UHGV virus genome: UHGV-1326467
From: a virus
Direction: 5' to 3' (one strand)
Length of the DNA: 23,054 bases
The notes beneath the pieces are model-generated. The model made no database searches and was not told the DNA's origin. It was given only the letters and a program-made list of their open reading frames with translations. This document shows, one piece after another, positions 2,219 through 18,718 of the stretch; within the stretch, counting starts at the first letter, position 1, and each line of letters opens with the position of its first letter. The position numbers were made by a program, and so were the translations under genes.

Positions 2219-2844
2219 AATTGATCCTGTGAAAATGGGGCGTGTAACGTCTTTTTCGCCATCCTGCGACGTCAAGCCCGTGCAATGCCGATGAGTGCCA
2301 GAGAGCATAATCGAATCTCAACTCATGATTGTCTTTTATTTGCGTCAATAAATGCAATGTGAAGCCGTCCCTTTTCATCTGGAAACGGAAGGTAGACGAA
2401 TACAGGATTGAGAAGCAGGCCGCCACCAGGCTACTCATCAGGGGCGTATCAATGTGGTCTCCGGTCCGGAGCATGCTGAACCGCTGCAGTAACGAGTGTC
2501 GCGGCCACTTGTGGTGCGGAAACAGGCAGGATGAACAGCGGGGAAGCATGCAACCAGCGTTACTGTTAAGGATTTCGAAATAAAAGAGCGAATGTGGCGA
2601 ACGGCCAGAGCGTAAACCCGCTGGATTTGATGATTAGCACAAGGCCATCCTCATCAGGAAAACGTAGTGCGCTTTAATGAGAATGTCTGATTTTATCTCA
2701 TTGAATAAAAAGTGTTTTTTCTGGCGCACAGGCTTAGTTTTAGGTTCCACAAAAACACTAAAGCTTTATGAGGTGCCTGACAAGGTGCCTAAAAGGTTCA
2801 GATTTAATTAGTTGGCATCTGACTTCGCGGGACAAATTGAGGGC

Positions 2845-2880
2845 ACAAAAAAGCCCGCAGGGCTTGCGCCGTGCGGGCTC
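2845..2880 (-). terminator. rho-independent terminator of the native ssrA trailer
   Basis: Perfect 8-bp inverted repeat agcccgca / tgcgggct (2852-2859, 2872-2879) with a 12-nt loop, followed on the minus strand by TTTTT; lies about 45 nt downstream of the tmRNA CCA end. Confidence 0.5.
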
Positions 2881-2925
2881 TTAGGACTTCATCGGATGAC
2901 TCTGGTAATCACCGATGGAGAATTT

Positions 2926-2961
2926 TGGTGGAGCTGGCGGGAGTTGAACCCGCGCCCGAAA
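2926..2961 (-). other. ssrA: int-proximal prophage attachment site (attL in lambda convention): 36-nt copy of the ssrA (tmRNA) 3' end
   Basis: Minus strand reads tttcgggcgcgggttcaactcccgccagctccacca, matching the enterobacterial tmRNA 3' end (T-arm, acceptor, CCA) as recalled; similarity breaks upstream where the integrase gene begins, so no complete ssrA is present here. Confidence 0.6.
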
Positions 2962-3018
2962 CTTTATAACCTCATGATAAACAGTGATAAAAAAATGTAG
3001 CGTTTTGCTGCGGATCCT

Positions 3019-4209
3019 TTACGGCTCCTTTGAGGTTCCACCGCTGACCAGCTTGGGTCGTTTTTCAGTGTTGCCGTCATACTCCTTCAGATAGCGTCCA
3101 TAATGCCTGAACAACATTTCAGGCCCTTTGTGTCCCATCTGCGATGCGAGCCAGAACAGGTTAGCGCCTTGACTAATATGCCTGGTCGCGAACGTATGCC
3201 TGGTCTGGTATGGATTGCGGTACCTGATCCCGGCTTTGCGTAAAGTTGGCACCCAGGCTTTCTTTCTTATCGCATCGGCACCCGCCCATGGTTTTTCTGT
3301 CTTGGGATCCTCAAAGATCGTTGCATCTTTCATAAAGGTGAAAGGCTTCTGAGAAATCAGGGCATACAAGGCTTCTTCGGTTAACTCAACTTTACGTGTT
3401 CCAGCTTTAGTTTTCGTGCCCTTAATTACTCCCACTACGCTGGCATTTTGCACATGCGCTGTTTTGCCGATAAAGTCGATATCGCGCCAACGGAGGGCGC
3501 AGAGTTCAGAACTACGTAGCCCGGTTTCAATTGCAAAGCGGAATATGTTTTCCCACTGCTTGTTACCTGCGGCATGCAAAAGCGCTTCAACCTCGGCCGG
3601 TGAAAGCGGATCAACAATATAATCACTTTCATCCTCGGTTTTACTGCTCTGGTAGCGCGAGGCTGTCACCAGTGAAACTGGGTTAATCTGTAATACACCA
3701 TCAGTCACAGCTTCATCCAGTGCTGAGCGTAGGAATGAAAGTTGGTTCCTAATCGTTTTTAATGTCGTTTTCTGACTCTGGATCCATGTTTTTAAAGCAG
3801 CAGGTGTTAATTCACTGGCAGGAAAAACGTGAAGTGATGCCAAAGCATTTAAACATTTCTTATATCCGCCGATTGTTGAAGGAGATAATTTTCTCGTTTC
3901 ACAAATTACAAGATATTCATCGAGATAATTTTTTACCGTTTTTCCTGTTGAAGCATTACCAAATATTTTAAGTCGTGCCGAACGGGGAAAGTGTTCACCA
4001 TAATTGAATGTACCCCGCTCAATTTTATTGTGAATTTCGCCGAGTGTTCGCTCGGCGTATTTTATGTTTTTGCTATTAACTTCAAGGTTTGATAAAGGTT
4101 CCCGGCATTTCACCCCCTTATAGGTAAAGGTAATATTGATAGTTTCCCCAGTACTATGTTTCCTGATCGTTACGCCGCGCGGGAGTTTAGGCGATTTTGT
4201 CGAGCCCAT
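3019..4209 (-). CDS. int: phage integrase, tyrosine recombinase
   Basis: 396 aa; C-terminal catalytic motifs ...TRHTFATRHI... and ...LFRHYGRY (R, H-x-x-R, Y), N-terminal arm-binding region; sits next to the att site and overlaps xis. Confidence 0.9.
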   Translation of the reverse strand: MGSTKSPKLPRGVTIRKHSTGETINITFTYKGVKCREPLSNLEVNSKNIKYAERTLGEIHNKIERGTFNYGEHFPRSARLKIFGNASTGKTVKNYLDEYLVICETRKLSPSTIGGYKKCLNALASLHVFPASELTPAALKTWIQSQKTTLKTIRNQLSFLRSALDEAVTDGVLQINPVSLVTASRYQSSKTEDESDYIVDPLSPAEVEALLHAAGNKQWENIFRFAIETGLRSSELCALRWRDIDFIGKTAHVQNASVVGVIKGTKTKAGTRKVELTEEALYALISQKPFTFMKDATIFEDPKTEKPWAGADAIRKKAWVPTLRKAGIRYRNPYQTRHTFATRHISQGANLFWLASQMGHKGPEMLFRHYGRYLKEYDGNTEKRPKLVSGGTSKEP

Positions 4210-4415: not shown

Positions 4416-5294
4416 TTAATTAACTGCGCTTTTTGGCGCTGGTGGTGCGATCGCGCTCATAGCGGCGTGGACAACACAAGCAATATGCTCACGCAATTGT
4501 TGTGTACTGTGATATTCAATAGCTATATCACGCAGTTTATTGATTAGTTCACGGATTTGATGCTCTTTCAGCACTACTGGTAATGGCTGATAGGTGGTTA
4601 CATTAGCGAAAGCTGCTCTCAATCCGATCTTAATATCCTCCACATCGTCATCACCCAGGGGACCATCGGTTAGCGCATGATGGAATGCGTAAGCCATAGC
4701 ATCTGTTACTGGCCCTACCGCCGATGGTTGATCTTTAATGTGCAACCGCGGCTCACCGTCTTTCGGCTCAGGCCATTCGCGCTGTTTGTTCACCGCCAGT
4801 TTTTCGATCATCGCCTGGGTAATCTGCTCGTCTGTAATACCAGCCCGGCGCTGGGCATCCCACAGCAGGAATTGCATATCAGCCCACTCCGACAGGTCAT
4901 CTGGTTCCGCTGCGGCCTCCATAGCCTCTTTTGCCAGGTGCTTCAGTGGGCCAACCGGGCCGACATTACCGAACGTAGCCTGTGACCACTCGGCGTGCTC
5001 ACGGCGTACCTGCTCGCGGTCCGGCGCTGGCTGCGCGTGGCGATAGAGCGGGATATCCCCCGCCTCCTGGTTTTGTTTACCCCAAATCAGAGATGTTTCT
5101 CGGCCCATAGCAATATGATGAAGGTTTCGTTCATCTGTGAACACAACCGGCTCACCGTCCATTGCGTCCAGCGCCATGCGGGCCAGCTCTTCCGCTTCTT
5201 CTGCTGGCAGCATTACGTTGATTTCAGCTCCATAGGTTTCACGCCATGATTTAATTTTTTCCAGACGTTCTCTGTTTAACTGGTTATTGGTCAT
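4416..5294 (-). CDS. DUF550 (MazG-like dATP/dGTP pyrophosphohydrolase) domain protein with C-terminal extension
   Basis: Central segment ...HAEWSQATFGNVGPVGPLKHLAKEAMEAAAEPDDLSEWADMQFLLWDAQRRAGITDEQI... resembles phage DUF550 proteins. ATG at 5294 with AAGGAG 7 nt upstream is preferred over the track start at 5354. Confidence 0.55.
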   Translation of the reverse strand: MTNNQLNRERLEKIKSWRETYGAEINVMLPAEEAEELARMALDAMDGEPVVFTDERNLHHIAMGRETSLIWGKQNQEAGDIPLYRHAQPAPDREQVRREHAEWSQATFGNVGPVGPLKHLAKEAMEAAAEPDDLSEWADMQFLLWDAQRRAGITDEQITQAMIEKLAVNKQREWPEPKDGEPRLHIKDQPSAVGPVTDAMAYAFHHALTDGPLGDDDVEDIKIGLRAAFANVTTYQPLPVVLKEHQIRELINKLRDIAIEYHSTQQLREHIACVVHAAMSAIAPPAPKSAVN

Positions 5295-5305
5295 TGGTTG
5301 GCTCC

Positions 5306-6064
5306 TTACACTGCCAGTTGCAACTGCATGTCGAACCGGTCGCGCTGCTCGCAATATGTAAGCGAACCGGGGCTATTATGTGATTCAATGCGCTCTACCA
5401 TTAGGGCGGCGCGAGTCTCTTTCGATGCTGGCGCATAGGCACCAGACCAGGCTTTATCTATCCCGATATTGCGGGCCACATTTGTGGAATCGGCGCTCGC
5501 CAGCGGAAGCTTTGTGAAAATCAACGGGTTCAGCATGCGTAACCCATGAAGTTTCGTAATCGGCTGCCCGTACTCATCTACAACGTGACGAATCAGGTCT
5601 TTCATTCTGGCGACTGCGAGGTTTGGTCGCTTAACGTCGTAATCGCCACAACTTCCTATCGCCACCCGAGGCCACTCGTTGCACAACCTGATAAACCGCT
5701 CATCGCTTTCGTTCATGTGCCATACCGGAACGCCGATGAATTTCCCATGCGGCCAAGCAAGCAGTAACTCGTCATTTTCCCGCTCTCCTCCGTCGATAAC
5801 GTCAGGTATAATGGCGAAATCAAATCCGGGGTGATTCATCCAACGAGCCACAAACTCGTCGTAATCGCTCCAGTCGATTTTGTTTTTCCCAGCCTCCTTC
5901 CAGGCGGTAAATGCGCCATTGTCGAGAGCGAAGGACTGGCAATATTCAGATGCCAAGTTAATTTGCCCGGAATGCGCGAAACTGATGAAGGCATGGCGTC
6001 CTTTCCAGGCTTTCAGAGCGCACGTATCCGGTGTTATAGGCCCACCGTGATAGTGAATCATCAT
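5306..6064 (-). CDS. TGT-fold protein lacking the Zn subdomain; candidate DpdA-like DNA 7-deazaguanine transglycosylase
   Basis: 252 aa; motifs FALDNGAF (compare TGT LTDSGGFQ), AIIPDV, KLHGLRMLNP (compare YLMGVG) and DSTNVARNIG (compare DCVMPTRNARNG). No CxCxxC...H zinc motif. Start overlaps the stop of the upstream gene. Confidence 0.45.
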   Translation of the reverse strand: MMIHYHGGPITPDTCALKAWKGRHAFISFAHSGQINLASEYCQSFALDNGAFTAWKEAGKNKIDWSDYDEFVARWMNHPGFDFAIIPDVIDGGERENDELLLAWPHGKFIGVPVWHMNESDERFIRLCNEWPRVAIGSCGDYDVKRPNLAVARMKDLIRHVVDEYGQPITKLHGLRMLNPLIFTKLPLASADSTNVARNIGIDKAWSGAYAPASKETRAALMVERIESHNSPGSLTYCEQRDRFDMQLQLAV

Positions 6065-6711
6065 CCCTCCACCTTAATGCCGGAGTTATGGATTTCATGA
6101 ATCGCATTGTCATTGCCAGCGCACCAACCTTCGGCATAATCCCGGCTGAATCCGCTCATATGCATGACTTCGCCAACGGAACGCTTCGGCAGCTTCACGG
6201 AGCGGGACTCCAGCTCGGCGATGCGCTGGCGAAGAGCCGCAATCTCAATTTCTGCAGCATCGGCATAATGAACGTTTTCATGCTCCAGCGGCGGAAGGTC
6301 TGGAGTATTCACGCCAAACAGCGCCGCCAGTGCGCGATAGTTCAGCTCGCTGTGATAGCGGCCTTTGCAGCGAACCAGTTTTTCGGCTGCTGCACGGATA
6401 GGTTCAATATCGTCGATATGCGCTTTGAGCTTATCAGCGCGGAACCGCTCGTTATCAAAGCTGGTACGCCAGCTGTCACTCTCCTGCTGCACCTTCTCCA
6501 GCGCCTCTACCAGCGCGAGGATGTTTACCGGGTTGGCTTCTTTGTTGAATTCATTCAGATCAGTGATATCGATATCAATCTGTTCACCTTCGTGCTGAGA
6601 AATATCGATAATCTCGCCATATGGGTATGCTGCGAGTCGTTCATGTGCCCCAATGGCATTCTCTGCTGCCGCTTTCAGGCTCTGCGCCAGTTTGGTGATA
6701 TCAGTTGTCAT
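6061..6711 (-). CDS. Ead/Ea22-like phage early-region protein
   Basis: 216-aa acidic protein with coiled-coil segments (NILALVEALEKVQQESDSWR...); ATGA stop/start overlap with both neighbours. Family assignment is from memory and approximate. Confidence 0.45.
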   Translation of the reverse strand: MTTDITKLAQSLKAAAENAIGAHERLAAYPYGEIIDISQHEGEQIDIDITDLNEFNKEANPVNILALVEALEKVQQESDSWRTSFDNERFRADKLKAHIDDIEPIRAAAEKLVRCKGRYHSELNYRALAALFGVNTPDLPPLEHENVHYADAAEIEIAALRQRIAELESRSVKLPKRSVGEVMHMSGFSRDYAEGWCAGNDNAIHEIHNSGIKVEG

Positions 6712-7436
6712 GCTGCACGCTCCTGTTTAATCCCCATGCGCTGGCATGCGGTGCGGTAAATGGCAGCATCCTTCTCGATGCCAATGAAGTTACGCCCGGT
6801 CTGTTGGCAGGCGACGCCGGCGGTACCGCTACCCATAGTGAAGTCCAGCACCGTATCGCCTGGGTTGCTGTAGGTTTCAATCAGGTATTGCACCAGCCCC
6901 AGCGGCTTCTGTGTTGAATGAAGAGATTGCTTTTGCTTATCACTAGAGAATTTCTGCACGTCTCGCGGATAGCGGCTTGTTGAATCGTAAGTGACTTTTT
7001 TCAACGCCTCGCCATAGACATCAGTATTCGGCGTGCCTCTTGTTGCAGTTTTTCTGGCGTGCCCATGTGTCATCTGTGGGTTATAGGTCGGCTGACGGCG
7101 ATAAAACACCTCGATGTTTTCATGTGCACGAAGAGGTTGTTTTTTCGCATTCAGGAAACCCGTAGCATGTGGCTTCTCCCAAATCCACTCCGACCTCCAG
7201 TCCCGTAGATTGCTGTTGACCAGCACACTGGTGAAAGGCTGGGCAGAGAACAGCACAATAGCGGCGTTGGGCTTAGCGATACGGTATAGCTGGTCCCACA
7301 TCACCTGCAGATCGAGAACAGAATCCCAGCGGCACTGAGTGGTGCCGTAGGGAATATCGGCACATACCAGGTCAACGGTACCGCTGGCGATTTGCGGGAA
7401 GACGTCGAAGCAATCGGCGTTGTGAAGGCGGATCAT
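6708..7436 (-). CDS. DNA methyltransferase, N6_N4 (beta-class) family
   Basis: Motif IV-like DIPYG (ADIPYGTT) precedes HSTQKP...VLDFTMGSGTAGVACQQTGRNFIGIE (AdoMet-binding motif I), the beta-class order. Confidence 0.85.
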   Translation of the reverse strand: MIRLHNADCFDVFPQIASGTVDLVCADIPYGTTQCRWDSVLDLQVMWDQLYRIAKPNAAIVLFSAQPFTSVLVNSNLRDWRSEWIWEKPHATGFLNAKKQPLRAHENIEVFYRRQPTYNPQMTHGHARKTATRGTPNTDVYGEALKKVTYDSTSRYPRDVQKFSSDKQKQSLHSTQKPLGLVQYLIETYSNPGDTVLDFTMGSGTAGVACQQTGRNFIGIEKDAAIYRTACQRMGIKQERAA

Positions 7437-7558: not shown

Positions 7559-7689
7559 GCTGTCACCCATTCGATCATCATGCATATGCCCCAGGTCACA
7601 GCGACTACTGCAACCCACCCGACAACACTGGCCAGTGCAGCAAACCAGAGAAGGGCGCGCCGGCTGTAATTTTCAGGTTCAAAGTTCAT
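7555..7689 (-). CDS. small hydrophobic peptide (44 aa), predicted single transmembrane helix
   Basis: MNFEPENYSRRALLWFAALASVVGWVAVVAVTWGICMMIEWVTA; ATG overlaps the ParB-like stop (ATGA) and the TGA overlaps the next ATG. Below the 60-aa ORF track cutoff. Confidence 0.4.
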   Translation of the reverse strand: MNFEPENYSRRALLWFAALASVVGWVAVVAVTWGICMMIEWVTA

Positions 7690-8486
7690 AGCGCCTCCCC
7701 AAGCACCCAGCGCAGAGCCTCAGCATATTCGCCGCTGGCATCTTCGAGGGCTTTTGTAATTTCCTTGCGTGATCTGATACGCGGCTTTGCTTCACCGAGA
7801 ATCTTGCGCTGCCGACGGGCTTTTTCGTGGCCTTTGGTACCAGCTGTGGCCAGCTCGATTTCTGCCACTTTTGCCCGCTGTTCTTCTGGTGGGAGCGCAC
7901 CAAGCTGACGCGCCTGGGTAACGGTAACTGTGCCAGACTCCACCGCTTCCCGGACTGCTTGGGTAGCCTCGAGGAGGGAGAGCGTTGCACGAACGGTTTG
8001 AACGCTGCAGCCAAATAACACCGCAATATCGTCCTCATCGAGACCGCGGTCGAGCGCGTCTGACATTTTTTTAGCCCGGCCGAGCGGTGTATCAGGTCGG
8101 CGAATTTCATTTTCGCTGACCATGTATTTAGCCATCTGATTTGCTGAGCCGCGCTTAACGACCCCAGGAACAAGCAGTGGGTCTTTGCCTTCTTTCAGAA
8201 GGAGTTTATTTGCCTCCAGGGTATGTTTAACGCGCTGACGGCCTACAACCACGCAGGTGAGCCCTGTTTCAGGGTCTTTCCAGACGATAATCGGCTCCAG
8301 TACACCCAGCTCCTTGATGTTCAGAACCATCCCTTCGTCGATCGGCAGGTGGACCCGCTCATCGTAGAGAGGGTGGGTCTGATCGGTGACTAAATGCAGC
8401 TTTTCCGGTTCGAACGACAGGGCGTTGGTTTTGCCGCTGGCGCCGTACACGTCGATCGAGTTTTTAGCCATTGTTTTTAACCCCAT
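7686..8486 (-). CDS. ParB-like nuclease / partition domain protein with HTH
   Basis: N-terminal ParB/Srx-like segment (LGVLEPIIVWKDPETGLTCVVVGRQRVKH) followed by an HTH (VQTVRATLSLLEATQAVREAVESG). Confidence 0.7.
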   Translation of the reverse strand: MGLKTMAKNSIDVYGASGKTNALSFEPEKLHLVTDQTHPLYDERVHLPIDEGMVLNIKELGVLEPIIVWKDPETGLTCVVVGRQRVKHTLEANKLLLKEGKDPLLVPGVVKRGSANQMAKYMVSENEIRRPDTPLGRAKKMSDALDRGLDEDDIAVLFGCSVQTVRATLSLLEATQAVREAVESGTVTVTQARQLGALPPEEQRAKVAEIELATAGTKGHEKARRQRKILGEAKPRIRSRKEITKALEDASGEYAEALRWVLGEAL

Positions 8487-8664
8487 TCAGGACTGCCAAC
8501 ACGGCAGCCTGCGCTGTGTTTTGGTCCATTGCTTCGGTAAGGGCGATGAACGTTACATCCAGTCGTGAAGCAATATTGCGCATTAACTCTGCCGCTTCCG
8601 GTGGTAGATCTGGTGCCGCAGCGTAAGCTGCAGCGACCAGTTCTTTAACTTTCATATGTGGCAT
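8464..8664 (-). CDS. small hypothetical protein (66 aa)
   Basis: Start overlaps the stop of the upstream HD-domain gene (TAATG); sits within the coupled operon. Confidence 0.4.
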   Translation of the reverse strand: MPHMKVKELVAAAYAAAPDLPPEAAELMRNIASRLDVTFIALTEAMDQNTAQAAVLAVLNGVKNNG

Positions 8665-9191
8665 TAGCGCCGCTCCATCAGCTGGTGGAATCGGTTCATG
8701 AACATCCCATAGGCCTGACCTGGGCGAACCGGATTAATAACGAATTGATCCGTTGGAATAATGCCTTCGAGCATGGGCCAGACAGTACCGTCGTCGATCT
8801 CAAAGTCACGACGTTCGCTGGCCAACATCACTAGGTCGGCATATTTAACGGTCGGGTGCTGCTCAGCAGGTAGGCCGAATTTCTGACGTATTGCAGCATC
8901 AACCCGATCCTCAATGGCGCGGTAGTCCGGGAGCAGGCGTTTAAGCGGTGCTGGAATATCCTGCAAATAAGCCTCTGCGGCATCGTGCAGAAGTGCTTCA
9001 AGCGCAAACTCCTGTGGTACCAGGTGGCTGGTTAACACGCTGTGCTGACCAACGCTGTAGAACTCCGGAAGATGGCCAGCAAAGCGGCAAATATTCGAGA
9101 GCGCGTTAGCGATATCTTCGATCTCAATGGCATCCAGCTGGATATCCAGATAGTTAAAGTGCTTGCCTGTGAAGGTTTGAATAAAGCTCAT
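8664..9191 (-). CDS. yfdR: HD-domain phosphohydrolase, YfdR-like 5'-deoxynucleotidase
   Basis: HD motif (ALLHDAAEAY) and size (175 aa) match prophage CPS-53 YfdR as recalled; ATG at 9191 with GGAGA 7 nt upstream is preferred over the track start at 9221. Confidence 0.65.
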   Translation of the reverse strand: MSFIQTFTGKHFNYLDIQLDAIEIEDIANALSNICRFAGHLPEFYSVGQHSVLTSHLVPQEFALEALLHDAAEAYLQDIPAPLKRLLPDYRAIEDRVDAAIRQKFGLPAEQHPTVKYADLVMLASERRDFEIDDGTVWPMLEGIIPTDQFVINPVRPGQAYGMFMNRFHQLMERR

Positions 9192-9323
9192 CGTATTTCT
9201 CCATTTAATTGCGCTCTGCACAGCGCTGATTTTTGTGTGTAGGAATCCCTCGCCAGGTGGCGATTAATTGCAGGATTACGCTTTAATAAATCCCCGCAAC
9301 GACGGGGATTTAATGGAGAGCAA

Positions 9324-10579: not shown

Positions 10580-10718
10580 GGTTTTACCCTCTCGAAAGGC
10601 GGCTGCCACCGCCGGGAATTTCTCCGTACACAACACAGAAGAGCACCTGCGGCTGCAAATCCGCCCGGGTGGATTGGGTAATGAGCCCGTCGCCCGGTGA
10701 TGCTCTTGTGTATTGTGT

Positions 10719-10788
10719 AAAAAGGGCGGTTATCCATCAGAACGTTATCCTCTTCCTCCTTTGGATAGTGGAAAACTGGATAACCGCC
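10719..10788 (-). terminator. candidate intrinsic terminator / attenuator in the pL transcript upstream of the early genes
   Basis: Perfect 11-bp inverted repeat ggcggttatcc / ggataaccgcc (10725-10735, 10778-10788) enclosing an inner 5-bp hairpin (tatcc / ggata) and an AGGAGG-rich loop, followed on the transcribed strand by CUUUUUA. Confidence 0.4.
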
Positions 10789-10789
10789 A

Positions 10790-11697
10790 AGACTACACAC
10801 AGCACAGTTAACTAGGTTGTGGCGGTGGTGCCTCCACCTGCCGGGTTAAGCCATAACCGGCGACGTACACTGCCCGGAAACGCATTCCATGAACGGGTTG
10901 GCTCGCCACGTGCGCATAGCCGCAATTACCACAACGAAGAGAGCACTGCCGGTGTCCGAATCGAACGGACCTTTTCCCTGCCCATCACCAGATATAGAAC
11001 TATCCTGGCGTCTGGAATCGAACCAGACTCTGTGCCTTGCTCGTCAATGCCCTCATCGTTGTGTCCCGGACTCTTCCCGGGCGTCACACCTTTTCGCCGC
11101 GCTGGTGGGGCGCACGTCGTGCCTGAAACACTTAGCTTGCACATTCCAGTTGTCCGGATAGCGCATGGAACTTCAAGGGAACCATCCGGGCTGCTAACGC
11201 TGCATGTGCCATACAACGGTCGTGAATATTGCCGTTCACAACTGGAAGCGCACTCCTTCAGTTACAAACCAGTCCCCACGACGTATGAAGATGGAATGCG
11301 CTTTCATGTTGTGTACGATTCATCTACCCCGGTCCGGCGGCGCCACCTCGCCGGGGCAGATGCAAAGGACCGTTACGCGATCATTCGGCTTGTTGGTCTG
11401 GCCGGAAGTATCAAGTCCCGACATCGCGGATTCTGCTTCTCCGCCCCGATTTCACCCCCGCTATTGTTTAGCGCGCAAACCGAGAAAACGCCTTCAACGC
11501 TGTCGGCTTTCGCCATGTTCGATCAGGTATCTTCGGGCGGGGCGCCGGCGACCAACCGGCACAACCCCTACAGTATTAATCCAGGTCTACTGGACCCCCG
11601 ACGCCGTGGGCTAAACGGCTGCTGTATGTCGGGTGAGTTTCTGTTGCTGGTGGTCAATCCAGCTCCGCAACCCCTCCCGAAGACACCTGTTTTTCAA
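10790..11697 (-). other. ORF-poor, strand-asymmetric leader segment; candidate structured noncoding RNA or decayed locus
   Basis: No minus-strand open frame longer than about 112 codons and none protein-like; plus strand is C-rich, giving spurious 90-305-codon opposite-strand ORFs with low-complexity translations. Two T-arm-like hairpins with UUCGAUU loops (plus 10954-10970, 11011-11027) and a long-range inverted repeat (10878-10890 vs 11291-11304). Confidence 0.3.
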
Positions 11698-11910
11698 TCA
11701 AAACTTCAAATTACGCACCAGAGGGGCAGCAGTTGAGCCGCCTGACATTTGTACCCTGATACGGTTTACTGATGGTTTGCTACGTTCTTCGCCCGTAAAG
11801 CTGTTGAATGTGCATAACCCTAGGACTAAACGAGGGACGCCGCGTAAAATTACAATTCCTCCAGCTTTTGGTAGCTTGCGGTACGCCTTGCGGCGTTGTG
11901 CTGAATTCAT
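11698..11910 (-). CDS. pL-proximal small basic protein, possible N-like antiterminator
   Basis: 70 aa; N-terminus MNSAQRRKAYRKLPK resembles an arginine-rich motif (lambda N begins MDAQTRRRERRAEK); GAGAGG Shine-Dalgarno 8 nt upstream; first ORF downstream of the predicted pL. Confidence 0.35.
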   Translation of the reverse strand: MNSAQRRKAYRKLPKAGGIVILRGVPRLVLGLCTFNSFTGEERSKPSVNRIRVQMSGGSTAAPLVRNLKF

Positions 11911-11945
11911 CCTGGTTGCCTCTCACCGTAAAGTAAGTTTGCTGA

Positions 11946-11996
11946 TGAATGTAATATTAGAAGTCTTACATTTTAAGTCAAGAGGAAAATGTAAGA
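11946..11996 (-). promoter_or_regulatory. pL promoter with overlapping operator palindrome (oL)
   Basis: Leftward -35 TTGACT (11981-11976), 17-nt spacer, -10 AATATT (11958-11953). Perfect inverted 10-mers CTTACATTTT (11965-11974) and AAAATGTAAG (11986-11995) straddle the -35; the same 10-mer recurs in oR. Confidence 0.55.
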
Positions 11997-12020
11997 AGGC
12001 TTACTTTTTGTGGCGGGGCA

Positions 12021-12044
12021 ATAAAAAACCCGCGGATGCGGGTT
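12021..12044 (-). terminator. rho-independent terminator of cI
   Basis: Stem aacccgc / gcgggtt with loop atcc followed by TTTTTT on the minus strand, 8 nt after the cI stop codon. Confidence 0.7.
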
Positions 12045-12051
12045 CGGGGGC

Positions 12052-12684
12052 TTAGAGATCGATGATTATTTGCTTAACTATACCGATCAGTTTTGTATCT
12101 TGGTTCACCTCTATAGGCTTAAACGACGGGTTTAGAGGTATGAGATAGGAAAATGGAGGGTCTATGGCGAGCTTTTTAATGGTCGCTTCACCACCAGTAA
12201 CGGTTTGGGCTATCACAATTTTGCCATTTGCCTCATCAACAAAACCGTATTCTGGCTCGACAATGACAACCGAACCATCAGGAATGCTAAGCTCTTGGCT
12301 CGAAGTCATCGAGTGACCTTTAACACGTAATGCAAAAGCTGATTCAGATAGCTTCTTTGTAGTTTTAACCAGTTCGTTAGCTGGATCGCCAATAACCTCG
12401 GTCCAGTTACCTGCCTGAACCCAAGATATAACAGGCACTTCTCTAACAGATATCAGGTTAATGTTGATACCGTTCTCGATATCGCCTGTACCGAAGATAA
12501 GCCATTCGGGAGAACATCTCAGGCACTGACATACCAATACAAGATTCTCGCCTGATAACTTTGTGGAATCATTTTCCCATTGTGTAACCGCAGACGCGCT
12601 GACGCCGGCCCACTCAGCAACATCACGTTGCGTAAGTTTTTTCTGCTTACGTCTAAATCTTAATCTGCTGCCAACGGTATCCAT
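12052..12684 (-). CDS. cI: CI-like repressor (HTH plus S24 LexA-like peptidase domain)
   Basis: N-terminal HTH (KLTQRDVAEWAGVSASAVTQWE) and C-terminal S24 domain with catalytic Ser (GHSM) and a downstream Lys; GGAGG Shine-Dalgarno; divergent from cro. Confidence 0.85.
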   Translation of the reverse strand: MDTVGSRLRFRRKQKKLTQRDVAEWAGVSASAVTQWENDSTKLSGENLVLVCQCLRCSPEWLIFGTGDIENGININLISVREVPVISWVQAGNWTEVIGDPANELVKTTKKLSESAFALRVKGHSMTSSQELSIPDGSVVIVEPEYGFVDEANGKIVIAQTVTGGEATIKKLAIDPPFSYLIPLNPSFKPIEVNQDTKLIGIVKQIIIDL

Positions 12685-15451: not shown

Positions 15452-16405
15452 ATGAGTCAGGAAGTACAAGAAGCTATGACCGCAGAAGAGCAAAATTTAA
15501 CAAAAAGCGTCAGCCCTTATTGCCTGGCACTTGAGGAACAGCGCCAGCGAAGTTCGCATTATTTGAAAGAAGTCGGGGATCAATGGCGTACCCCTGATCT
15601 GCTGTTCTGGGGCGTTAACGCTTTGTTTGGCCCGCTGGTGCTGGACCTGTTTGCAGACGACAGCAATACAAAATGCCCGGCATGGTATACCGCTGAAGAT
15701 AATGCGCTGACGCAGGACTGGTCTGGTCGTCTGGTAGAACTCGGAGGAGCGGCCTTTGCTAATCCGCCGTACAGCCGCTCGCAGTACCATGAAAAACAAG
15801 CCATCACTGGCATGACTCATATTATGAACTATACCGCCGAGCAGCGTGAAAAGGGTGGTCGTTACATTTACCTCGTGAAGTCAGCAACAAGTGAAACATG
15901 GTGGCCGGAATATGCCGATCACATCATGTTTATTCGTGGTCGTATTGGATTCGATCTCCCAACGTGGTTTGTGCCGGCCGACGAAAAGCAGAAGCCCACC
16001 AGCGCCTTCTTTGCTGGCGCTATCGTGATATTTGATAAGACATGGTGTGGGGAGCGCTTTAGCTATATCGATCGTATAGAGCTTGAGGCGAAAGGGCGCG
16101 CAAGTATGGCTTTGGCTGAGTTTGCTGCGGGAAAATTCCTGTCACCAGCTTCGCCAGTTCAGTCTCCTGAAGTGATCATCCCCGATGCTGTTGCATCACT
16201 AGCTGAGGCTGAATCCCGGATCTGGCCACTGGAAGTTGGTCTCGTCTTTGAACAGTTACAAGGCGCAGAGGATCTGGAATTCTCACAGCAGAACAAGCTG
16301 AAGGCCCACATTAACCAGTTGTGGCTGGAGCGGGTGCCCACCAGCGAAATCATTACCGTTGCTGGTGGTCTTGTCGGCAGCATGAGGGGGACCGCTCATG
16401 CGTGA
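15452..16405 (+). CDS. phage Dam-family DNA N6-adenine methyltransferase with C-terminal extension
   Basis: WRTPDLLFWGVNALFGPLVLDLFADDSN...AFANPPYS: NPPY catalytic motif and the typical phage Dam N-terminus, plus about 120 extra C-terminal residues. Confidence 0.8.
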   Translation: MSQEVQEAMTAEEQNLTKSVSPYCLALEEQRQRSSHYLKEVGDQWRTPDLLFWGVNALFGPLVLDLFADDSNTKCPAWYTAEDNALTQDWSGRLVELGGAAFANPPYSRSQYHEKQAITGMTHIMNYTAEQREKGGRYIYLVKSATSETWWPEYADHIMFIRGRIGFDLPTWFVPADEKQKPTSAFFAGAIVIFDKTWCGERFSYIDRIELEAKGRASMALAEFAAGKFLSPASPVQSPEVIIPDAVASLAEAESRIWPLEVGLVFEQLQGAEDLEFSQQNKLKAHINQLWLERVPTSEIITVAGGLVGSMRGTAHA

Positions 16406-18248
16406 GCTCATCGTAGACAACTTTGCGGGCGGTGGCGGTGCATCAACTGGGATAGAAATGGCGATCGGTCGTAGCGTTGATATTGCGATAAACCATGACG
16501 AAAACGCAGTGGCCATGCACCGAACTAACCATCCTGAGACGCTTCATTATTGTGAAAACGTTTTTGATGTTGACCCCTTGGCTGCGACAGGCGGGAAAGC
16601 TGTTGGGTTTGCGTGGTTTAGTCCGGATTGCACCCACTATTCAAAGGCCCGCGGCAGCAAGCCCGTCAAACGTGAGATCCGTGGTTTGGCCTGGGTATCT
16701 GTTCGCTGGGGATTGGATGTACGTCCTCGCGTGATGGCTCTTGAAAATGTTGAAGAATTTAAAACGTGGGGCCCGCTACTCTCTTGTGAGATGCGTCCTG
16801 ATCCTGAGCGTTCGGGTGAAACCTTCCAAGCATTTGTTGGAATGCTTTCTACTGGTATACCTGAGGATCATCCGGCGCTGTTCGAATGTTGCGAATTTCT
16901 CGGGATATCGCCGGATAGCAAACAAGCCAAACGGCTGATTGCTGGCCTCGGGTATAAGGTCGAATATCGCGAGCTTCGTGCCAGTGATTATGGTGCACCG
17001 ACGATCCGCAAGCGATTCTTCATGTTGATGCGTTGCGACGATAAACCCATTGTCTGGCCTGAGGCTTCGCATGGTGATCCTAAATCGGCCTCAGTGCTGA
17101 CAGGTAAACTGGCGCCATGGCGGACAGCAGCTGAATGCATCGACTGGTCCATTCCTGCACCATCGATATTTGACCGCAAAAAGCCGCTTGCAGTTAACAC
17201 GTTGAAGCGTATAGCTCGGGGTATCCAGAGATTTGTGGTCGATAGCGATAACCCATTCATCGTGAAATGCAACCATACCACGACACGCGGTAAATATGAT
17301 TGTTTCCGTGGACAGGAGTTGTATTCGCCAATACAGACAATCACCAAAACTCATGGTTACGCGTTGGCGGTACCTACTCTGGCACCGTTTATGGCTGGAA
17401 ATGGTGGTAGCCAGTACCAAGCTAAACCGCGCCCACTCAACAAACCAGTTCATACCATCCTAAAGCAATCCCGAGCATGCGTAGTTGCCCCGGTTATCGC
17501 CCGCCAGTTCGGTGCCAGCATTGGCCATCGGGCAGATGAGCCTAGCGCCACGATTACCGCTGGGGGTGGGGGAAAGTCTCAGTTAGTCACGGCCACGCTT
17601 ATTCAGATGGGGTATGGCGAACGGGTGGGGCAATCACCGCGGGTTCTAAATCTTGGTAAACCGTTGGGTACTGTTACAGCTGGGGGCAATAAGTTTGCCG
17701 TAACAACTGCGTTCCTGGCAAAACACTATGGCGGGAACTACACCGGTCCGGGCGTTGGGCTTGATGAGCCAGCTCACTCAGTGACTACAGTCGATCATCA
17801 CGCTCTTGTGACATCGCACCTGGTAAAACTGCGCGGTACCTGCCGTGATGGTCAGCGCACCGATGAACCGATGCCGACAATCACCGCAGGAGGTCAGCAT
17901 GTGGGAGAGATTAGCGCGCTGCTGGCGGCTAATGATTACGATGAGCGCCGTGCGGATCAAGTCAAAGAGTTCCTAAATTCGTTTGGCGTCAGCGAACTGG
18001 TGACGATTAAGGGCATTGTTTACCGGATTGTTGACATCGGAATGCGAATGCTACAGCCACATGAACTTTACCGCGCTCAGGGATTCCCGGACTGGTACAT
18101 CATCGACCGGGACTACCGCGGCGTGAAGTATTCGAAGGAAAAGCAAGTTGCGCGCTGCGGAAACGCCGTGCCGCCGCCGTTTGCTGAGGCGCTGGTTAGG
18201 GCCAATCTGCCGGAAATGTGCGTTAACAAACAGGAGCGAGCAGCATGA
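16398..18248 (+). CDS. DNA cytosine-5 methyltransferase, 616 aa, with a long repeated variable region
   Basis: Motif I FAGGGGAS, motif IV-like FSPDCTHYSKA, motif VI LENVEEF, motif X CGNAVPPPF. Four repeated modules between them, each containing a [ST][IV]T[AT][GV]-type core (TITAGGGG, GTVTAGGN, HSVTTVDH, PTITAGGQ). Confidence 0.85.
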   Translation: MRELIVDNFAGGGGASTGIEMAIGRSVDIAINHDENAVAMHRTNHPETLHYCENVFDVDPLAATGGKAVGFAWFSPDCTHYSKARGSKPVKREIRGLAWVSVRWGLDVRPRVMALENVEEFKTWGPLLSCEMRPDPERSGETFQAFVGMLSTGIPEDHPALFECCEFLGISPDSKQAKRLIAGLGYKVEYRELRASDYGAPTIRKRFFMLMRCDDKPIVWPEASHGDPKSASVLTGKLAPWRTAAECIDWSIPAPSIFDRKKPLAVNTLKRIARGIQRFVVDSDNPFIVKCNHTTTRGKYDCFRGQELYSPIQTITKTHGYALAVPTLAPFMAGNGGSQYQAKPRPLNKPVHTILKQSRACVVAPVIARQFGASIGHRADEPSATITAGGGGKSQLVTATLIQMGYGERVGQSPRVLNLGKPLGTVTAGGNKFAVTTAFLAKHYGGNYTGPGVGLDEPAHSVTTVDHHALVTSHLVKLRGTCRDGQRTDEPMPTITAGGQHVGEISALLAANDYDERRADQVKEFLNSFGVSELVTIKGIVYRIVDIGMRMLQPHELYRAQGFPDWYIIDRDYRGVKYSKEKQVARCGNAVPPPFAEALVRANLPEMCVNKQERAA

Positions 18249-18718
18249 TGAGGTTAACTCTCAGGCAGCAGGAGGTTCTGAACCTCCTGATCGAGTACCA
18301 ACGTAAGCATGGTTTCCCTCCTACCACTTACGAACTGACCGGCATGTTGGGGTGCCGGTCCCCCAATGCCGCAGCAACGCACCTCAAGGCGCTGGAGAGA
18401 AAAGGGGCCATCAAGATTACCCGCGGAGTTTCTCGCGGTATCAGTATCACCCCTTCGCTGTTGGCCAGAGAAATATCGGTCAATCTCAATAGCATCGTAA
18501 AAGTGAAACTTACTGCCGAAGCTCTAAGTTACATGAGAAGCCAGCACGAAGAGAATCGTATTCGGAAGCCGTGGTTATTTGGAGAGTTTGTTCCGCCAGC
18601 GACAGATGATGAGGGTTTTTCTAAGATGACTCTGTGGAGTCTCATGTCTGACCTGGGGCAACTCTGCTATTGCGGTGGCGACGTACCTTTCGAGCTAAAA
18701 ATGGTTCTGGAGGATTAA
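18245..18718 (+). CDS. LexA N-terminal DNA-binding domain protein lacking the S24 peptidase domain
   Basis: LRQQEVLNLLIEYQRKHGFPPTTYELTGMLGCRSPNAAATHLKALERKGAIKITRGVSRGI closely parallels the E. coli LexA DNA-binding domain as recalled; the about 80-aa C-terminus has no Ser/Lys peptidase motifs. ATGA overlap with the C5-methyltransferase stop. Confidence 0.75.
   Translation: MMRLTLRQQEVLNLLIEYQRKHGFPPTTYELTGMLGCRSPNAAATHLKALERKGAIKITRGVSRGISITPSLLAREISVNLNSIVKVKLTAEALSYMRSQHEENRIRKPWLFGEFVPPATDDEGFSKMTLWSLMSDLGQLCYCGGDVPFELKMVLED

Follow-up and report, generated by a model that had tools for sequence, protein, structure and literature searches.

The window analysed here is the whole stretch of 23,054 nucleotides (nt) from the virus genome UHGV-1326467, and the gene under study lies on its minus strand, where it encodes a protein resembling the phage enzyme DpdA of the tRNA-guanine transglycosylase (TGT) superfamily. 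The open reading frame (ORF) at 5306..6064 is uninterrupted and comprises 252 amino acids (aa) when counted from its first ATG. Homologues are 251 aa long and begin with the N-terminus 'MIHYHGG', which corresponds to the second ATG (6061-6059), and residues of the DpdA-like protein are numbered here on this 251-aa form. The TGA stop codon (6063-6061) of the upstream ORF overlaps both candidate start codons (ATGATG), an arrangement that implies translational coupling of the DpdA-like gene, and a Shine-Dalgarno sequence can be read off upstream (Table 1). An exact-sequence look-up of the protein returned no identical record. The ORF at 5306-6061 is a real gene, packed tightly in an operon.

A first-pass annotation, made from the letters alone, had proposed that this protein is a DpdA-like relative of TGT. 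As regards family, though not activity, profile searches bear this proposal out. The protein matched PHROG 887, named 'queuine tRNA-ribosyltransferase', in a PHROGs profile search (E = 4.6e-100). For comparison by hhalign, a diverse family alignment of 72 sequences (31-93% identity) was used. Its profile matched DpdA of Escherichia phage CAjan with a probability of 98.8% (E = 9e-17) and a 16-member alignment of the CAjan family equally well (98.8%, E = 6e-17; 154-160 columns), while pairwise BLASTP between the window protein and CAjan DpdA gave E = 1e-5. The protein is thereby placed not in an unrelated fold but with a genetically validated enzyme, as deletion of dpdA from CAjan abolishes all dPreQ0. 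A TGT-like (beta/alpha)8 barrel was also found for the DpdA-like protein; a Foldseek search against PDB put generic TIM barrels on top and TGT at rank 34, a ranking that does not discriminate. We are highly confident that the protein belongs to the phage DpdA family.

This family is large and widespread. A large protein database contains 6,569 homologues, nearly all titled 'hypothetical protein', and an exhaustive hidden Markov model search yielded 1,634 clusters at 50% identity, of which 588 fell below 1e-10, mostly of 230-270 aa. The closest relatives found by tblastn are BTP1_023 (SIU02687) of Salmonella phage BTP1 (91.7% identity), the homologue in SPN3UB (~91%) and that in Shigella phage SfI (71%), each aligned along its full length. 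Farther relatives occur in a set of Vibrio phages (62%) and in Pseudomonas phage Epa33 (45%), and the farthest in T1-like coliphages (~41%) and 7-11-like Salmonella phages (~34%). For the window, the best matches were to Salmonella (93% protein identity) and Dryocola (91%), and E. coli genomes matched it only piecewise. Intact homologues at 66-93% identity are distributed across many genera. The 2019 survey by Hutinet et al. (PMC6884629, Supplementary Data 1) lists 76 phages with 'DpdA but no G+ or preQ0 biosynthesis protein', and its DpdA-only list for gamma-Proteobacteria phages (group 3) contains BTP1 SIU02687, SPN3UB YP_007011024, SfI gp34 YP_009147480 and HK106. Because the near-identical BTP1 orthologue was catalogued there as a DpdA-only phage protein in 2019, the window gene is a further copy of a catalogued sub-family; it introduces no new principle and is not a discovery. 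Our literature search found no paper after Hutinet et al. (2019) that tests DpdAs of the BTP1, SPN3UB, SfI or HK106 type.

The three segments on which the first-pass annotation had relied, FALDNGAF (residues 44-51), KLHGLRMLNP (170-179) and DSTNVARNIG (191-200), were located in the order it gave. These motifs are not chance resemblances, because they hold the only invariant columns of the family alignment, namely D47, H172, D191 and S192 (each 72/72). Other columns are nearly as constant: H115 and D87 are conserved in 71/72 sequences, G136 and F/Y51 in 70/72 and L174 in 68/72. For CAjan DpdA, Kot et al. (2020, PMC7544227) assigned Asp206 as the nucleophile, Asp63 as the general base and Ser64, Phe67, Asp105, His132, Gly153, Gly154 and Phe189 as the pocket. 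The hhalign register pairs D206, D63, S64, F67, D105, H132, G153, G154 and F189 of CAjan with D191, D47, N48, F51, D90, H115, G136, S137 and L174 of the window protein, so that all nine published active-site positions are identical or conservatively replaced. The catalytic aspartates, whose absence from an alignment the first-pass annotation had named as one refuting outcome, align with those of CAjan. The spacing of D47 and F51 (Asp, three residues, aromatic) is the same as that of D95 and F99 in bacterial DpdA (PMC10164549). Invariance of the catalytic residues over 31-93% identity implies selection for catalysis. H172, which lies 19 residues ahead of D191, resembles the partner in the catalytic pair H226/D248 of Cap10, and by this analogy it is likely the hydrogen-bond partner of the nucleophile.

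One pocket position is less straightforward. D90, which hhalign pairs with CAjan D105, is variable within the close family (D in 38/62, G in 20/62), and the near-constancy of D87 makes the latter the likelier base-recognition residue. We think, from the alignment, that D87 is the true equivalent of Asp156 in TGT and Asp130 in bacterial DpdA, and that the hhalign register is locally off by one turn.

The expectation that the protein is too short for the zinc subdomain also held: only 60 residues follow D191. The whole protein has five cysteines, which are scattered and do not form a CxCxxC...H cluster; across the family, the last 70 residues contain a median of one cysteine. Bacterial DpdA and TGTs have a structural zinc site (CxCx2Cx22H), which in bacterial DpdA pins the insertion Ins8 onto the barrel; Ins8 forms part of its DNA-binding surface and contains the essential Phe265. 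Both the zinc site and Ins8 are absent from the DpdA-like protein. A Cys cluster is missing from CAjan DpdA as well; the lack of zinc is thus a trait of phage DpdA that does not set the window protein apart from active phage enzymes.

Comparison with described systems places the window gene closest to the singleton DpdAs of BTP1, SPN3UB and SfI, with which it has in common its length (~251 aa), its solo status and its position in the early-left (PL) 'ea' region of lambdoid or P22-like temperate phages; flanking Ead/Ea22-like and EaA genes are common to it and BTP1. There is no difference of substance: it is another allele in another prophage, with a methyltransferase and a ParB-like gene upstream. 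Relative to DpdA1 of Escherichia phages CAjan and 9g, which are validated DNA preQ0/G+ transglycosylases, homology is clear, neither side has a zinc site or a Pfam TGT match, and the isoelectric points are similar (6.05 against 6.26). CAjan DpdA, at ~23% identity, is longer (306 aa, with a longer C-terminal region), and its gene lies in a folE-queD-queC-queE-yhhQ cluster of a virulent phage in which ~32% of G is replaced, whereas the window phage is temperate and has no such pathway. Bacterial DpdA (S. Montevideo, PDB 7UI4) has 413 aa with Ins1-3, a 128-residue Ins8 and the CxCx2Cx22H zinc site, none of which occurs in the DpdA-like protein. It also needs the ParB-like ATPase DpdB, whereas the ParB-like gene of the window is in the operon but not adjacent, and PADLOC detected in the window no Dpd component, neither DpdB nor DpdC nor DpdD-K. 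The tRNA-guanine transglycosylases (bacterial TGT, archaeal ArcTGT, PF01702) differ by their Pfam match, zinc site, tRNA-binding insertions and C-terminal domains. In type IV CBASS, the substrate of Cap10 (PDB 9NTN) is a deazaguanine linked to a protein, and its partners there, Cap9 and a CD-NTase, are not in the window.

The window covers the early half of a lambdoid prophage integrated beside host genes (FKBP-type, PTS EIIC fragment, GNAT), and the DpdA-like gene sits in its PL operon. The neighbouring genes with Ead/Ea22-like and EaA-like products are co-transcribed with it. The Shine-Dalgarno sequence TAAGGAG of the downstream PF04447 gene overlaps the TAA stop of the DpdA-like gene; the TTG-initiated ORF at 4416-5354 is over-extended, because the gene starts at an ATG (5294-5292) with this Shine-Dalgarno sequence. 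The remaining minus-strand genes are an integrase, an excisionase, a DUF2303 (YfdQ-like) gene and a YfdP-like ORF, after which come a long leader and a CI-like repressor. The plus strand carries CII-like and replication O-like genes, a Dam-type methyltransferase, a 616-aa C5 methyltransferase, a protein with a LexA DNA-binding domain, RusA, a regulator, an HNH endonuclease and Q. The combination of three DNA methyltransferases of different classes with a DpdA-like gene in one prophage is an unusually heavy DNA-modification load, and two nucleotide-pool enzymes (4416-5294 and 8664-9221) flank the modification genes. The location of a dGTP-hydrolysing enzyme beside a guanine-exchanging enzyme may be more than coincidence. 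As the first-pass annotation had stated, folE, queC, queD and queE are absent from the window (tblastn with the CAjan proteins, best E = 0.06; Pfam and PHROGs annotation of the scanned ORFs of at least 90 aa). Neither tRNA genes nor a Cap9/QueC-like gene, CD-NTase or effector were found in the window, and PADLOC detected no CBASS component in it.

Table 1. Positions of the DpdA-like gene, its motifs, neighbouring genes and elements of the PL leader in the window
Feature	Coordinates	Strand	Remarks
DpdA-family (TGT-superfamily) gene	5306..6061	-	251 aa from second ATG; stop TAA 5308-5306; alternative start 6064 gives 252 aa
Shine-Dalgarno AAGGTGGAGGG	6065..6075	-	read off the sequence; second ATG 4 nt downstream
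FALDNGAF	5909..5932	-	D47 (5921-5923), general acid/base Asp (CAjan D63, bacterial DpdA D95)
FALDNGAF, pocket residues	5909..5932	-	N48, CAjan S64; F51, base-stacking aromatic (CAjan F67, bacterial DpdA F99)
IIPDVIDGG	5786..5812	-	end of beta strand; D87 5801-5803; D90 5792-5794
H115	5717..5719	-	CAjan pocket His132 (hhalign)
G136-S137	5651..5656	-	CAjan pocket Gly153-Gly154
KLHGLRMLNP	5525..5554	-	H172 5546-5548, invariant; L174, hydrophobic base-stacking residue (CAjan F189, bacterial DpdA L236)
DSTNVARNIG	5462..5491	-	D191 (5489-5491), catalytic nucleophile Asp (CAjan D206, bacterial DpdA D256)
EaA-like dATP/dGTP pyrophosphohydrolase (PF04447)	4416..5294	-	downstream, co-transcribed; start ATG 5294-5292
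Ead/Ea22-like gene (PF13935)	6061..6711	-	upstream, co-transcribed; same neighbour in BTP1 and L046
N6/N4 DNA methyltransferase (PF01555)	6708..7436	-	same operon; 647 nt upstream of DpdA-like gene
ParB-like protein (ParB helix-turn-helix domain, PHROG 1033)	7686..8486	-	same operon
HD-domain deoxyribonucleoside 5'-monophosphate phosphatase (YfdR-like)	8664-9221	-	
Structured RNA, ~135 nt	10930-11063	-	core common to several leaders; conserved core 10926-11076
T-arm-like hairpin GUCCG-UUCGAUU-CGGAC	10954-10970	-	perfect tRNA T-arm consensus
T-arm-like hairpin GUCUGG-UUCGAUU-CCAGAC	11011-11027	-	perfect tRNA T-arm consensus
Leader module	11042-11324	-	matches Klebsiella phage 1 LV-2017 and E. 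coli MLI106K4; fold z-score only -1.5
Leader module	11314-11520	-	matches phiNP
Leader module	11524-11690	-	matches ST64B
Dam-type methyltransferase (PF05869)	15452-16405	+	
C5-cytosine methyltransferase (PF00145), 616 aa	16398-18248	+	domain split by large insertion
157-aa protein with LexA DNA-binding domain (PF01726)	18245-18718	+	nin-like region; directly after the C5 methyltransferase gene, with 4-nt overlap

Gene context across the family was analyzed in 37 genomic loci (Enterobacterales, Aeromonas and a few metagenome-assembled genomes, MAGs) for que genes and in 42 loci for counts of neighbours within 3 kb. No homologue of FolE, QueD, QueE or QueC was detected within +/-10 kb in the 37 loci, and no Cap9/QueC-like, CD-NTase or effector gene in the sampled loci. 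The DpdA-like gene was always found in early operons of lambdoid or P22-like prophages among the loci examined, while its adjoining genes vary strongly: the order is Gam-RecT-YqaJ-DUF1317-DpdA-...-Xis-Int in E. coli and SfI, and eaE, Ead/Ea22-like, DpdA-like, EaA in BTP1. In 13/42 loci a DNA methyltransferase, belonging to one of five classes, is found within 3 kb of the gene, which it often abuts; four MT-A70-type genes are -4 to +9 nt from it, and a C5 methylase is 14 nt away in Epa33. DNA modification is thus a recurrent theme of these neighbourhoods. The PF04447 pyrophosphohydrolase is within 3 kb in 5/42 loci, and the same pairing is seen in BTP1.

ParB-like genes occur upstream in 5/42 loci (including L008 at 2664-4004, L016, L024 and L027), with a 4-nt overlap in Pantoea phage AH07, and a ParB-like gene is also adjacent to the homologue in Arthrobacter phage Sonali. 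By analogy with bacterial Dpd, it is conceivable that the ParB-like protein acts as a DpdB-like helper. Such pairings are, however, far from the rule, and ParB-like genes are found beside phage methyltransferases too. We rejected the ParB-like protein as an obligate DpdB-like partner, as it is present in only these five loci and absent from the BTP1, SfI and E. coli loci. An apparent 'ParB cluster' of seven loci was found to be a single-linkage artefact merging ParB with EaA/PF04447 proteins.

Links to the preQ0 pathway were seen only in distant relatives, among which two gene fusions are informative. The protein P0261 (locus L175, 2840-3847), from a 24-kb phage-like metagenomic contig, is an in-frame fusion of QueD (PTPS) with a DpdA-like domain, and P0240 is a fusion of a Dam-type (D12) methyltransferase with a DpdA-like domain without approximately the first 38 barrel residues. 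In Escherichia phage Phleasolo (L006, 4528-5831), a T1-like virulent coliphage without que genes, a gene for the putative preQ0 transporter VUT/YhhQ overlaps the start of the homologue, and in an Amaricoccus MAG (L038) a YhhQ/VUT-type gene precedes the homologue by 422 nt. This suggests a second solo strategy, in which the base is imported and then inserted. Together, the QueD and Dam fusions, the YhhQ neighbours and the methyltransferase neighbours link the family both to the 7-deazaguanine pathway and to a DNA substrate.

Farther upstream in the same operon, approximately 1.3 kb of elevated GC content without a credible ORF separates the repressor terminator (12045-12026) and a PL-like promoter (11981-11954) from the first PL-operon ORF (10636), the ORF-free leader spanning 10637-12051. 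The leader gave no match in Rfam at E<=1. Of 5,426 complete E. coli genomes, 2,592 contain matches to pieces of it, as do 132 phage records; among the matches listed, almost all have no annotated feature beneath. The layout of repressor, gap, yfdP/sb37 and yfdQ was also found in Stx2a_1447, ST64B, phiNP and a Klebsiella phage. The leader is a mosaic, in which three consecutive modules of ~170-280 nt (11042-11690, minus strand) each match a different phage; in every one of these phages the matching module has the same location, just downstream of PL. Two plus-strand ORFs lie over this region, at 10819-11736 (305 aa) and 11633-12055 (140 aa); they are rich in Pro, Ser and Arg, have no Pfam or PHROG match and do not resemble BTP1 BstA. 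Almost certainly they represent non-coding frames opposite the structured leader. The former was considered as a BstA-like defence gene, as it has the same position beside the repressor as BTP1 BstA, and was rejected for its non-coding-like composition and its lack of similarity to BstA.

A structured RNA of the leader was identified on the minus strand (Table 1). Perfect T-arm hairpins were counted four times in six leaders, compared with 0.06 in shuffles, and a pattern scan of viral contigs obtained 83 homologous copies. RNAalifold on 22 non-redundant copies predicted a closing stem of 20 bp and two T-arm-like hairpins with a hypervariable one between them, with UGACGAGCAAGGCA and AUGGGCAGGGAAAAG as conserved single strands. 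Compensatory changes occur at 13/35 pairs, and 97.3% of cells are paired, compared with 36-50% for slid partners; none of 500 shuffles (0/500) reached the observed value on any of five measures. The G-U pairs speak for the minus strand as the one that is transcribed. A tRNA or tmRNA was rejected on ARAGORN at default settings, and a Pas small RNA because those lie in the late region. From its alignment the element looks like an undescribed, unannotated and strongly covarying structured RNA, for which a processing signal, a tRNA mimic or an antitermination element are candidate roles. As it is also present in phages without the DpdA-like gene, no link between the two was seen.

Returning to the DpdA-like gene, we consider it rather probable that its product is a minimal, zinc-less phage DpdA that replaces guanine in phage DNA by a 7-deazaguanine base obtained from the host. 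Once the prophage is induced or a cell is infected, the gene would be transcribed during lytic growth with the other accessory genes of the PL operon. The enzyme would flip guanine out of double-stranded phage DNA and act by a double-displacement mechanism with D191 as nucleophile and D47 as acid/base; D47 would deprotonate N9 of the incoming 7-deazaguanine base, which would then resolve the intermediate, in a base pocket presumably formed by D87, H115, G136/S137, F51 and L174. As the phage has no folE, queD, queE or queC, the base must come from the queuosine pathway of the host, most likely as preQ0 and possibly as preQ1. Such a solo mode is feasible, because DpdA of phage 9g alone in E. coli inserts dPreQ0 from the host pool into plasmid DNA (790 per 10^6 nt) and bacteria infected by DpdA-only phages generally possess the complete queuosine pathway. 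The predicted outcome is a low-level, sparse or motif-restricted modification of the dPreQ0 type, which together with the three DNA methyltransferases of the prophage may blunt host restriction.

Several observations weigh against this exchange of guanine in phage DNA. The window protein and its 72 relatives have no match in Pfam, NCBIfam or PADLOC; PF01702 in particular gave none at E<=10 for the former and none at E<=1 among the latter. The Pfam null is uninformative and does not contradict the DpdA assignment, since Pfam does not detect the validated CAjan DpdA either, and the PADLOC model of DpdA, which has no match in the family of the window protein, matches CAjan DpdA weakly. Sequence searches of PDB with the single protein and with three profiles returned empty or spurious matches only, and hhalign against the single E. 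coli Tgt sequence was not significant (1.7%). The CAjan family against E. coli Tgt was likewise not significant, the sole aligned stretch being LDSGAF with TDSGGF. There is hence no direct sequence-profile link to canonical TGT or to bacterial DpdA, and the relationship is transitive, via CAjan DpdA, and structural. The protein is also devoid of the Ins8 and zinc site that give bacterial DpdA its DNA-binding surface and Phe265, and the pocket aspartate may, from the alignments, be either D87 or D90. Singleton DpdAs of gamma-Proteobacteria phages formed their own cluster in a similarity network, with possible functional divergence (Hutinet et al., 2019, PMC6884629). Finally, the only two solo-DpdA phages measured are little modified or unmodified: Salmonella phage 7-11, whose relative SE131 carries a homologue ~34% identical to the window protein, contains 0.02% dADG (50 dADG per 10^6 nt), and Orion contains no modification.

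A functionally diverged base-exchange or base-excision enzyme that retains the TGT-type active site would insert another base (preQ1, CDG, ADG or else) or merely excise one, perhaps in concert with modification genes nearby. In favour of such divergence are the clustering of singleton DpdAs apart from pathway-linked ones and the promiscuity of DpdA2 enzymes for preQ0, preQ1 and CDG; phage 7-11 has dADG and not dPreQ0, and the pocket carries N48 for CAjan S64 and L174 for F189; the widely varying immediate neighbours, often methyltransferases, fit the same picture. We nevertheless regard such divergence as unlikely: conservation extends to the pocket residues that recognise the Watson-Crick edge, the family is linked to the preQ0 pathway in particular by its QueD fusion and YhhQ neighbours, and a pure glycosylase would have no need of an invariant general-base Asp. 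Little modification in the measured solo phages, and the location in a non-essential, mosaic accessory region, would be expected of an inactive relic, or of a passenger gene in the variable 'ea' region whose product binds DNA without catalysis, and this we judge very improbable given an intact ORF maintained at 66-93% identity over many genera, the number of homologues and the invariance of the catalytic residues across the family alignment.

As for the substrate, the database name 'queuine tRNA-ribosyltransferase' and an active site in common with TGT would suit a phage tRNA-guanine transglycosylase that tunes translation by changing the queuosine or preQ1 content of tRNAs, whether from the host or the phage. 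Such names are inherited and not tested, the protein has neither the zinc-pinned Ins8 nor the insertions with which TGT grips the anticodon stem-loop, its validated relative CAjan DpdA modifies DNA, the window contains no tRNA, and the Dam fusion and adjoining DNA methyltransferases point to DNA, which together make an RNA substrate quite improbable. Action on a nucleobase-protein conjugate in the manner of Cap10, and not on nucleic acid, is brought to mind by the H172-D191 pair; with the gene placed in a phage lytic operon, and none of the type IV CBASS partners in the window or the sampled loci, its probability is close to negligible. A more speculative reading, which we put forward as a doubtful possibility, is that the zinc-less solo DpdAs of temperate enterobacterial phages are more than weak preQ0 inserters: they could be a functionally distinct branch that marks a few specific sites from the host queuosine pool (preQ0, preQ1 or another intermediate), maybe with abutting methyltransferases or with ParB-like NTPases as DpdB analogues, and the mark could defeat a particular defence or control packaging or replication instead of serving bulk anti-restriction.

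Solo DpdAs are the largest group of phage DpdA homologues (the 76 phages of the 2019 survey). The window copy is a further well-defined and readily tested example, with residues D47, D87, H172 and D191 as targets for mutagenesis, but it makes the role of solo DpdAs no more testable than BTP1 does. Homologues are spread through the prophages of Enterobacterales, including the Salmonella ST313 phage BTP1 and Shigella phage SfI. If the enzyme is active, many temperate phages of clinically important bacteria would carry low-level 7-deazaguanine marks derived from host tRNA-modification precursors, with effects on restriction, CRISPR, deazaguanine-sensing defences (Dag glycosylases, type IV restriction) and nanopore basecalling.

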